Source: Desulfobia sp.
GTDB lineage: Bacteria > Desulfobacterota > Desulfobulbia > Desulfobulbales > SURF-16
Reading direction: 5' to 3'
DNA: 64,000 nucleotides
Assembly (NCBI GenBank): GCA_046497465.1
Contig: JAWOFO010000035.1
Coordinates: forward strand, 1,074 to 65,073
In this document: positions 1 to 1,093 of the stretch, piece by piece
Layout: every line of letters starts with the position of its first letter
Position numbering within the stretch: the stretch's first letter is position 1
Notes under the pieces: model-generated
The model's database searches: none
Told to the model about the DNA's origin: nothing
What the model saw: only the letters and a program-made list of their open reading frames with translations
Translations under genes and position numbers: made by a program

Positions 1-495
1 GAAAGGCCCACCCCTTATGTTTGGGCGAAGGCAACACCGGATCCCCCACGGGACCCGGCTTTCCCGGCGTCCAAGAGCATGGCGGGTTATAAAGGATAGT
101 GTCGGAACCTGGGAGGCCCCTTTAAAGTCGGCAGGATGCCGAAACGCAACCGCAAGAGTTGAATTCTCAAGCCGAGCGTCATGCTTTTCAGGGGAGTCAG
201 ATCAGCCCATAGTAGTGATGAAGCGGGGTAATACCTGTGGAGCGAAGGGGCTGACGAAATTTGAACCTTGTCACGGACACGCTCCCTGCACTCTGAGGTG
301 GGAAAAGAGCGCACAACTGCAAGCAACCATATGCAACTGGAATTGTTTCATAGTCGCTGGACAAGGATACGTCTCCAAAGTAGACGGAAGCAAATTTCGA
401 GGAGCCCCGTGCGGGAAATTCGCATGCGGGGATCTGTGAGGGTTTTATCCTCTACTGGATCTCTTTAGACTTAGTGGAGGATAATTCTACTCAAT
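1..495 (+). ncRNA. ORF-less group II intron (IIB-like), 5' end outside window
   Basis: DIII-type GGAGTCAGATCAGCCCATAGTAGTGATGAAGCGGGGTAATACCTGTGGAGCGAAGGGGCTGAC; DIV closed by GAAATTTG(256-263)/CAAATTTC(391-398) with no RT ORF; DV GAGCCCCGTGCGGGAAATTCGCATGCGGGGATC (402-434, AGC triad); DVI hairpin 438-492 with bulged A489; ends AAT at 495. Confidence 0.9.
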
Positions 496-772
496 GATCA
501 GATCATTTAAATGTGAATACACCGAGGCGCTCTCGAAAGGCCATAGGGTAAAAAAATTTGTCAATATTGCCAAGGTTGCCCGGCGAAAACTCAGGCAGCT
601 CGAAATCGCTAATCGCCTTGAGGATTTAAGAGTTCCACCCGGCAATCACCTTGAGGCGCTTAAAGGCAGTCGTTCCGGTCAATATAGCATCCGCATCAAT
701 GATCAGTGGCGGGTCTGCTTTCGCTGGACGAATGGATTCGCAGAAGACGTCGAAATCGTTGATTATCATTAA
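494..772 (+). CDS. higB: HigB/RelE-family toxin (plasmid maintenance killer)
   Basis: MIRSF start, PPGNHLEALKG..GQYSIRINDQWRVCF..VEIVDYH signature. Confidence 0.95.
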   Translation: MIRSFKCEYTEALSKGHRVKKFVNIAKVARRKLRQLEIANRLEDLRVPPGNHLEALKGSRSGQYSIRINDQWRVCFRWTNGFAEDVEIVDYH

Positions 773-784
773 GGAGTATGCATC

Positions 785-1093
785 ATGAAAAAACTTGATC
801 CTATAACACCAGGTGAAATCCTGTTAGAAGAATTCCTTAGACCCATGGGGCTGAGCCAGTATCGTTTGGCTAAGGAAATAGGGGTACCCGCACAACGTAT
901 CAGTGAAATTGTTTCAGGAAAACGAGGGATTACAGCTGATACGGATTTGCGGTTGTGCCGATTTTTTGGTCTATCAAATGGTTATTGGCTCCGAGCGCAA
1001 GCTGCTTATGATACCGAAGTCGCCGAACGTAACATTGGTCCCTTGCTGAAAAACATTAAACCCTGGTCAGAGCATACTCCCCAACCAGGCTAA
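785..1093 (+). CDS. higA: HigA antitoxin (HTH XRE)
   Basis: PITPGEILLEEFL..ISEIVSGKRGITADTDLRL..YWLRAQ; AAGGAG RBS. Confidence 0.95.
   Translation: MKKLDPITPGEILLEEFLRPMGLSQYRLAKEIGVPAQRISEIVSGKRGITADTDLRLCRFFGLSNGYWLRAQAAYDTEVAERNIGPLLKNIKPWSEHTPQPG

Follow-up and report, generated by a model that had tools for sequence, protein, structure and literature searches.

A group II intron lacking an open reading frame within the start codon of a higB toxin gene of Desulfobia sp.: predicted reverse splicing into a putatively leaderless cassette and probable silencing of the toxin

The stretch of Desulfobia sp. DNA analyzed here (the window) comprises 64,000 nucleotides (nt) and corresponds to positions 1074-65073 of contig C26 (GenBank JAWOFO010000035.1) of G000, the genome under study, which is a draft metagenome-assembled genome (MAG) of 75 contigs. 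It starts within a group II intron without an open reading frame (ORF) that precedes a higBA toxin-antitoxin (TA) pair. The account that we favor, and that we regard as rather probable, is that this intron was reverse-spliced into the start codon of higB, at about position +3 of a leaderless mRNA, leaving the HigB toxin largely off and the HigA antitoxin in place, in a recent event that has been tolerated. Coordinates labelled L001 below refer to the same contig with the 1073 left bases added (window position = L001 position - 1073), and all other coordinates of the locus are those of the window.

The complete intron covers 722 nt on the + strand (L001 847-1568), as defined by Rfam matches, a GUGCG start and intron-less alleles, and its 3' part occupies window positions 1-495 (495 nt, + strand), the first 226 nt lying to the left of the window edge. 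A preliminary description made from the window letters had recognized the 3' portion of a group II intron with the AGC triad of domain V (DV) and a bulged A489 in domain VI (DVI), and this was borne out by a full-model match to RF00029 (DV-DVI) at 400-495 (L001 1473-1568), which scored 45.9 bits (gathering score 40) and had U495 as its last base. DV (402-434, + strand) carries the triad (403-405) and is capped by a loop of 5 nt, GAAAU, that results from a one-base deletion in the upper helix relative to the RF00029 consensus; its third pair is G.A instead of G.U, a feature common to all the sister introns with DV displayed (those on contigs C30 and C69 of G000 and those of loci L183, L184 and L187). 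DVI (437-495, + strand) is an extended hairpin that leads to the intron 3' end, ...CUCAAU495, and both the RF00029 alignment and the minimum free energy (MFE) fold place the bulged branch-point A489 6 nt before that end. About 40 nt of the DVI hairpin form an extension that is absent from the Rfam consensus. Domain I is neither missing nor degenerate, since positions 1-225 of the 225 of RF02005 were matched at L001 882-1152 with 95.7 bits (gathering score 49). The 3' end of this domain (window 1-79, + strand; RF02005 positions 136-225, clipped by the window edge) holds the hairpin of exon-binding site 1 (EBS1), the next hairpin and the closing strands of Id, and the cytosine at window position 68, put forward in the preliminary description as a candidate EBS3 complementary to G496, forms a U.C mismatch in the basal Id helix according to the Rfam alignment, the same position being paired in the model consensus and in the C30 sister intron.

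Leftward extension of the contig, as proposed in the preliminary description, revealed the GUGCG 5' end at L001 847-851 (GTGCGCC in DNA), 35 bases before the RF02005 match. The 5' exon ends in AT, as anticipated, but the ribosome-binding site expected before it was not there. The exon end reads ...GTAATACAT, and the bases upstream of the intron start are given as ...GTTATCATGTAATACAT. Joining the exons across the splice sites (L001 846/847 and window 495/496) gives AT|G and regenerates the ATG in frame. The AT at the 5' exon end is duplicated at the intron end, and the empty site alone would permit the boundary to slide by up to 2 nt; nevertheless, the boundaries are fixed because of the GUGCG...AU consensus and the Rfam alignments. 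Rfam alignments, intron termini and intron-less alleles were concordant in placing the 3' splice site at 495/496 and not away from it, that is, within the higB start codon (ATG at 494-496), where the preliminary description had predicted it.

The same description had noted that the intron encodes no reverse transcriptase (RT), and the wider searches agreed with it. When the intact RT of the C69 intron was compared with this intron by tblastn, no RT relic was detected (best E value 0.9, on the opposite strand), and genome-wide searches with Pfam RVT_1 and GIIM gave no match at the intron locus. The intron is non-autonomous, without an intron-encoded RT/maturase in domain IV. For the domain III and the domain IV of ~143 nt that the preliminary description had proposed, Rfam has no model. 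Elsewhere in the intron, a 60-nt stretch (L001 1265-1324) is 90% identical to another RF02005 intron, in G050. The last 32 nt of it, a motif of the DII/DIII region (L001 1293-1324, window 220-251), were also matched by a highly covered unrelated contig in RNA runs (depth ~77, X3), and this motif is a strongly conserved core element of the intron family in the community.

The insertion itself could be read from empty sites. A DNA search of 101 related genomes revealed intron-less alleles in three relatives (G031, G061 and G074), in which the 45 nt that precede the intron in G000 are contiguous with the sequence that follows it, the join lying exactly at AT/G, as expected from the earlier proposal that the intron had been inserted into the higB start codon. 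The empty-site alignment reads ...TA(N3)T-(6-7 nt)-ATGATCAGATCA..., and the G000 intron falls exactly between AT and G. A degenerate higB-start pattern found 29 loci in genome_contigs and 104 in metagenome_contigs (80 of the 104 were taken), and an intron before the higB ATG was present in 0 of the 109 loci examined, in allele scans that may omit records of the window's own genome or of very near genomes. The intron gave no blastn match to these 109 loci, and nhmmer returned a single weak match to them (L057 3261-3616, E value 1.7e-6), which is a separate RF02005 intron beside the G031 cassette. Exact copies of the 28-nt EBS1-hairpin stretch numbered 0 in genome_contigs, and no sister copy is known to carry the same EBS1. 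From these comparisons the insertion is real and base-precise, and it is so far unique to G000.

The higB gene (window 494-772, + strand) encodes 92 amino acids (aa) and matched PF05015 (HigB-like_toxin) with 69.5 bits (cut-off 27). The intron closes with A494 and T495 of the higB ATG, and the 3' exon opens with G496. The product aligned with PDB entry 6f8s_B over residues 2-92 (99 bits), with its N-terminus aligned from residue 2 of the solved homologue, and is predicted to be a full-length member of the HigB (RelE-fold) toxin family. A GGAGG that resembles a Shine-Dalgarno (SD) sequence lies at 476-480 (+ strand), 13 nt before the higB ATG, in the 3' strand of the DVI extension hairpin; its pairing in the DVI stem, already pointed out in the preliminary description, was confirmed in the MFE fold. 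Downstream, higA (785-1093, + strand; 102 aa, HTH_3; PF01381, 37.4 bits) is preceded by its own SD sequence, AAGGAG (771-776, + strand), read from the sequence 8 nt before its ATG. At the columns that were at least 90% conserved among 76 unique alleles, HigB was altered at 0 of 57, and the same type of comparison gave 0 of 71 for HigA. Relaxed selection on HigB was sought in these 57 columns and none was found; this lack of decay implies either a recent insertion or a toxin that is still under selection, and the unchanged HigB suggests that the insertion is probably recent.

A conserved promoter of the sigma-70 type lies immediately before the start codon in the intron-less alleles. A strict regular expression (TTGNNN-N16-18-TANNNT, then 5-8 nt, then ATG) was passed by 94 of the 109 loci. 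When only unique alleles were counted, the -10 box ended 5-8 nt before the ATG in 75 of 87, the spacing being 6, 7 or 8 nt in 74 of them, and GGAG, GAGG or AGGA occurred within 20 nt upstream of the ATG in only 2 of the 87. The corresponding G000 promoter, TTGACG-N17-TATCAT (L001 809-837, 10/12 match), is followed by GTAATAC (7 nt) and then by the ATG. Because the -10 box lies 6-8 nt from the AUG and there is no SD sequence, we infer that the native higBA mRNA is leaderless and that the intron is located at about +3 of the transcript. A leaderless native mRNA would leave no native leader for splicing to restore, and the idea in the preliminary description that splicing restores a leader with a ribosome-binding site is contradicted by the scarcity of SD-like tetramers and by the promoter position just given. 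Upstream, the homology shared by the alleles reaches as far as AATCACGC, immediately in front of the -35 box, and disappears beyond it. The promoter spacer also contains in all alleles (e.g. L001 815-837) a conserved imperfect palindrome of the TAATCACGC-AAT-GCGTTATTA type, together with a direct repeat of AATCACGC; these elements are presumably the HigA/HigBA operator.

The way in which the intron recognizes its target was analyzed by covariation, i.e. by searching domain I for pairing with the last 6 nt of the intron's own 5' exon. Of 32 rows (L001, L002 and 30 further loci), the comparison used the 16 with a recognizable [GT]TGCG start, and left out those with another or a cut 5' end (L163, L164, L166, L167, L168, L170, L171, L173, L174, L176, L186 and L188-L192). 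In a homologous loop located ~72 nt before the end of domain I, six of the 16 introns (L178, L179, L180, L181, L182 and L002) pair 6/6 by Watson-Crick pairs with six different sequences, two more (L172 and L184) pair 6/6 with one G.U, and four, the window intron included, pair 5/6. This covariation among sister RF02005 introns identifies the domain I terminal loop as EBS1, which in the window intron is 5'-AUGUUU-3' (window 17-22, + strand) within the terminal loop UUAUGUUU (window 15-22). It pairs 5/6 with its own exon, AUACAU, and 6/6 with AAACAU, which is present in 6 of the 87 unique empty sites. A candidate EBS2, UAUUUGA (L001 1061-1067), lies in an internal loop after CGAAA and forms five Watson-Crick pairs and one G.U, out of seven, with exon positions -13 to -7; the loop is homologous to the candidates of the sister introns, the C30 sister intron has the same geometry, and there is apparent co-variation. 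An alternative location of EBS2 in the terminal loop UUGGUCAAC of a domain I insertion hairpin was discarded, as its complement, UUGAC, is the -35 box, which lies 33-37 nt from the splice site and does not adjoin intron-binding site 1 (IBS1). IBS2 plus IBS1 (L001 834-846) correspond to the -10 box, the following 7 nt and the AT, and IBS2 overlaps the right arm of the palindrome in the promoter spacer. According to the data presented in PMC3753933 on ribozymes of classes IIE and IIF, EBS1-IBS1 is essential for the choice of the 5' splice site and for catalysis, and EBS2-IBS2 is dispensable in vitro. These pairings give the insertion the hallmarks of reverse splicing into DNA under the guidance of RNA, a route for which PMC2882425 has argued in the case of other introns without an ORF. 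The nearest sisters (EBS1 UAACGU; exons ending in CGTTA| or CGTTG|) were considered as possibly targeting the R' core of attC sites, and this was rejected on finding that GTTRRRY is left incomplete by the 3' exon sequences in L183 and in L184.

Under the account that we favor, the ORF-less RF02005 intron would have been reverse-spliced into the DNA of the higBA cassette, splitting the higB start codon after its T, and IBS2 plus IBS1 would be promoter DNA located upstream of the predicted transcription start and mostly untranscribed. RNA transcribed from the cassette's own promoter would retain no more of IBS1 than its final 2 nt (4 nt with a start at A843), and its productive splicing would be unlikely because a di- or tetranucleotide 5' exon cannot be held for ligation after the first step. 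Such a transcript would begin AUGUGCGCC..., and the AU, together with the G of GUGCG, would create a new 5'-terminal AUG that would open a 48-codon frame through domain I (the 48-aa ORF at L001 845-991). The true higB AUG would be buried 722 nt downstream behind the structured DVI, and its only SD-like element would be the GGAGG, which is poorly spaced and base-paired. Synthesis of HigB would be largely shut off, and HigA would still be made from its own SD sequence and would still repress the promoter; silencing of the toxin would make the insertion harmless and hence tolerated. Only read-through transcripts from upstream would be spliceable, probably with the help of the intact C69 RT/maturase. 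A TA operon is located upstream (L001 169-711), and no + strand terminator-like site was predicted between it and higB; no + strand promoter-like site was predicted inside the intron. The location of IBS1 and IBS2 in untranscribed promoter DNA argues against efficient splicing of own-promoter transcripts, and thereby against the tuned splicing-dependent switch of toxin translation that the preliminary description had suggested and that is probably wrong. Splicing of read-through transcripts from upstream is possible.

RNA-library contigs provided a view of the locus, the runs that hold the higBA cassette being labelled as salt-lake metagenomes. One of these contigs (X1 record 3, 450 nt) corresponds to an unbroken L001 1174-1621, with 1 mismatch in 448 nt, and crosses the 3' splice site, continuing for 53 nt into the exon, which shows the unspliced form. 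No RNA-library contig contained the L001 846->1569 joint or covered the 5' junction (L001 837-880), a result not used as evidence since contigs drop rare forms and gaps in coverage prove nothing; the comparison left aside runs X5-X11, with their small shares. Another contig, X1 record 2, was examined as a splice product and set aside: it joins L001 836 to 1726 with 4 other letters between them and has 7 mismatches, and reflects another allele or an assembly join. A depth spike at L001 1281-1360 is due to the 32-nt match of an unrelated contig (X3 record 14).

Several observations weigh against silencing of the toxin by the insertion. The perfect conservation of HigB is equally expected if the toxin is still expressed and selected. 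The leaderless character of the native mRNA is deduced from promoter geometry and from the absence of an SD sequence only, and a start 2 nt earlier, at A843, would include in the transcript the four splice-proximal pairs of IBS1, all of them Watson-Crick, in which case some splicing would be possible. A full 5' exon could plausibly be supplied by read-through from the TA operon upstream, as no terminator is predicted. The C69 RT may be unable to act on the diverged window intron (~50% identical to its ORF-less sisters). As to the RNA, X1 record 3 could stem from DNA contaminating the RNA library, and assembled contigs cannot reveal rare spliced forms.

In an adapted form of the idea in the preliminary description, HigB would be made only from transcripts started upstream, by read-through from the neighboring TA operon or from an array promoter, and spliced with the C69 maturase, the toxin being coupled to intron/maturase activity. 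The ligated exons restore the exact native coding start, the pairing of EBS1 (5/6) and EBS2 (6/7) is sufficient for splicing, no + strand terminator-like site separates the upstream operon (L001 169-711) from the intron, the genome holds an intact RT/maturase of the same RNA family, HigB is undamaged, and the splicing of ORF-less introns by a maturase in trans is established in the accounts given in PMC2882425 and PMC12584367. However, the AUG of a spliced read-through transcript would be internal and devoid of an SD sequence (present in 2 of 87 alleles), a situation in which a start evolved for leaderless translation should work poorly, and the occurrence of the arrangement in 0 of 109 other alleles is unlike a selected regulatory design; we hold this explanation to be unlikely. 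A conditional gate can also be envisaged, in which transcripts from the cassette's own promoter would be unspliceable and yield no HigB, and transcripts from upstream would regenerate the start codon with the maturase of the one active intron in the genome, tying the release of the toxin to read-through and retroelement activity. This would represent, if true, a kind of TA control not described so far, and we consider it decidedly unlikely.

A different possibility is that the unspliced RNA is translated, with the intron-made AUG preceded by GGAGG (476-480) acting as an SD sequence when DVI breathes, and the intron behaving as a long structured 5' untranslated region that gives lower or conditional levels of HigB. 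In the MFE fold, a 14-bp hairpin takes up the GGAGG, and the bases that immediately precede the AUG belong to the basal stem of DVI. A spacing of 13 nt between an SD sequence and the AUG exceeds the usual optimum, as is the case here. These features make such translation quite improbable, even though the AUG and the frame are intact in the unspliced RNA with GGAGG upstream, HigB is conserved, and the RNA-library contig is unspliced across the 3' junction. That same contig, which comes from another data set and spans the intron-higB junction with 1 mismatch in 448 nt, speaks against an assembly artefact in which the MAG contig would fuse the intron of one organism to the higBA cassette of another. 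A 75-contig draft and the fact that intron and cassette are both repeated mobile sequences in the community would favor such a fusion, but the insertion is base-precise at both ends relative to the empty sites and the flanking exon pairs with the intron's own EBS1 and EBS2, which is unexpected for a chimera; we regard an artefact as extremely unlikely.

Related introns are frequent in this group of organisms. RF02005 introns were found in 39 of 101 related genomes (37 of them above the family cut-off), and G000 has four, on contigs C69, C41, C30 and C26. The earlier note had suggested looking for sister copies at start codons and for a cognate maturase: none of the 109 higB alleles carries the intron, the sisters L183, L184 and L187 are intergenic, and an intact RT of the same RNA family, a candidate maturase, is present on C69. 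The three sisters, from three other genomes, are ORF-less introns of ~700 nt at unrelated intergenic sites that are 65-85% identical to one another and to which the window intron is ~50% identical, and the window intron is a member of this ORF-less lineage. The C69 protein (604 aa from the ATG in a 605-aa stop-free frame; TIGR04416, 368 bits) is the only intact RT of the RF02005 RNA family in G000, the C30 RT being fragmented and the C39 RT, which is of another RNA family (RF02012), broken. C41 (1-960) is an ORF-deleted copy of the C69-type intron (C69 1-2200), in which ~1240 nt with the RT gene are gone and the identity on both sides is 96-98%; it is a second, independent ORF-less derivative in G000. 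The C69 and C41 copies are each placed at the beginning of their contig, pointing to a repeated element at which the assembly breaks.

Concerning its class, members of IIE/IIF have been characterized, in the relevant sections of PMC3753933, as small ribozymes of 450-700 nt without an intron-encoded protein and with a 5-nt DV loop. The small size of the window intron (722 nt in total) and its 5-nt DV loop fit IIE/IIF, a tentative class for an intron that has no RT of its own. Comparison of the C69 RT with PDB entries gave IIC RTs as the best matches (162 bits, with the GsI-IIC RT at the top), followed by TeI4h (143 bits) and LtrA (127 bits), and does not resolve the class. Class IIC itself, considered in view of the small domain I, the RT without an endonuclease domain, the attC neighborhood in G031 and the GsI-IIC best match, was rejected on account of the 6-nt EBS1, the co-varying EBS2 candidate and the 5-nt DV loop.

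The higBA unit is a gene cassette of the integron type. Of 90 unique upstream regions, 39 carry a GTTRRRY motif at -60 to -55, ~10 nt ahead of the conserved promoter, whereas each of three control windows gave 0-2. In other loci higA is followed by full attC sites (R''-L''-L'-R'), such as GCCCAAC..CAGCCG..CGGCTG..GTTAGGC in L037. By-eye comparison with such full sites revealed at window 1079-1121 of G000 a shortened attC-like remnant, CCCCAAC...CAGCCG...GTTGGGA, in which the L' arm is missing, and, as this downstream attC is shortened, the G000 cassette may no longer be excisable. The upstream attC is located at L001 ~716-767, and L001 716-755 is a repeat that shows many different flanks in the RNA libraries, with loose ends ...GCCTAAC and GCGTTRRGC.... 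Only one copy of this attC-like repeat was found in the G000 assembly, with no array shown for this genome in a contig that begins ~700 nt upstream of the cassette. Members of the cassette family (loci L030-L138) occur in MAGs that bear the labels Desulfobacterales, Aminicenantes, Patescibacteria and Acidobacteria, among others. The intron-less higBA cassette of G031 has an RF02005 intron as a neighbor (L178, G031:C33:41657-44063; RF02005 at 43157-43392, + strand), which starts (GTGCGGGCC) ~50 nt past the cassette's left end. This intron is oriented opposite to the cassette, roughly at the position expected for the preceding attC, and recalls the IIC-attC introns but is of another RNA family.

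The window intron shares properties with several known systems. The ORF-less introns TeI3 of Thermosynechococcus elongatus and of dnaN in Trichodesmium, whose driver RT acts in trans, are, as portrayed in the parts of PMC2882425 and PMC12584367 devoted to them, also complete ribozymes without an RT gene, with good EBS/IBS pairing to their flanks, implying retrohoming, and with ORF-bearing relatives in the same genome (here C69, intact; C41, ORF-deleted; and C30, degenerate). They are, in those descriptions, IIB/CL introns placed in intergenic regions, within an intron ORF or in the middle of a gene, whereas the window intron belongs to RF02005, is IIE/IIF-like, has no detectable RT remnant in domain IV and interrupts a start codon where a transcription unit has only just begun. 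The EcKTE56.groEL intron, inserted in the groEL stop codon, likewise splits a translational signal codon of its host with base precision, at a conserved site (PMC12584367). That intron, as depicted in the passages concerned, is a IIB1 element with its own RT that recurs at one site in numerous genomes, has demonstrated mobility and is located at the 3' end of a long transcribed exon; in contrast, the window intron lacks an ORF, is a singleton absent from the 109 other alleles, and would have hardly any transcribed 5' exon.

Within integrons and CALINs (clusters of attC sites lacking integron-integrases) of halophiles, the introns UHB.I2 and H.ha.F1/F2 (Sonbol & Siam 2021, PMC7923331) resemble the present case in being non-IIC (CL1 and class E) introns in cassette arrays rich in type II TA systems, in cassette orientation. 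The class E copies are, however, 5'-truncated fragments, and the text consulted of that report mentions no start-codon insertion, complete ORF-less ribozyme or leaderless target. Small size, a 5-nt DV loop, EBS1 in the DId3 terminal loop and an apparently co-varying EBS2 are shared with the IIE/IIF ribozymes Cl.be.I2 and Pe.th.I2 as presented in PMC3753933, from which the window intron differs in the ~40-nt DVI extension outside the Rfam consensus. With the group IIC-attC introns it shares the integron association (a second RF02005 intron lies beside the G031 cassette), but it has a 6-nt EBS1, an EBS2 candidate, a target that is not an attC hairpin and a domain I larger than that of IIC. A literature search on group II introns, start codons, toxin-antitoxin and leaderless translation retrieved texts describing no intron that splits a bacterial start codon or a TA toxin start, the supplementary intron positions of PMC7923331 not being covered; leaderless translation is mentioned in general terms only in the portion consulted of PMC2945992.

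The kinds of element involved here are known (an ORF-less group II intron; an intron in an integron TA cassette), and it is the position, seen once, that is unusual and instructive. It would provide a clean natural example of a group II intron with what amounts to a promoter as its 5' exon, with AUG read at both junctions and the empty site available in about a hundred alleles. The small set of non-IIC introns described in integron cassettes also gains a member that is complete, ORF-less and IIE/IIF-like. If the silencing is true, the insertion would illustrate one route by which a mobile intron disarms a TA cassette without loss of the antitoxin. The locus could also serve as a test system for the shortest 5' exon usable by a group II ribozyme and for leaderless translation with an intron after the start, while its single occurrence in a draft genome makes its general importance modest.

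Two neighbors of the cassette deserve mention. The second TA pair, upstream (L001 134-711), comprises a weak RelE/YafQ-like toxin (169-450) and an HTH_3 antitoxin (451-711), and its strong promoter-like site, TTGACA-16-TATATT (11/12 match), ends 7 nt before the ATG, so that this pair looks leaderless too. Just after the cassette, a 90-aa ORF (window 1349-1621) resembles a helix-turn-helix fragment that may be left over from a transposase-associated protein.

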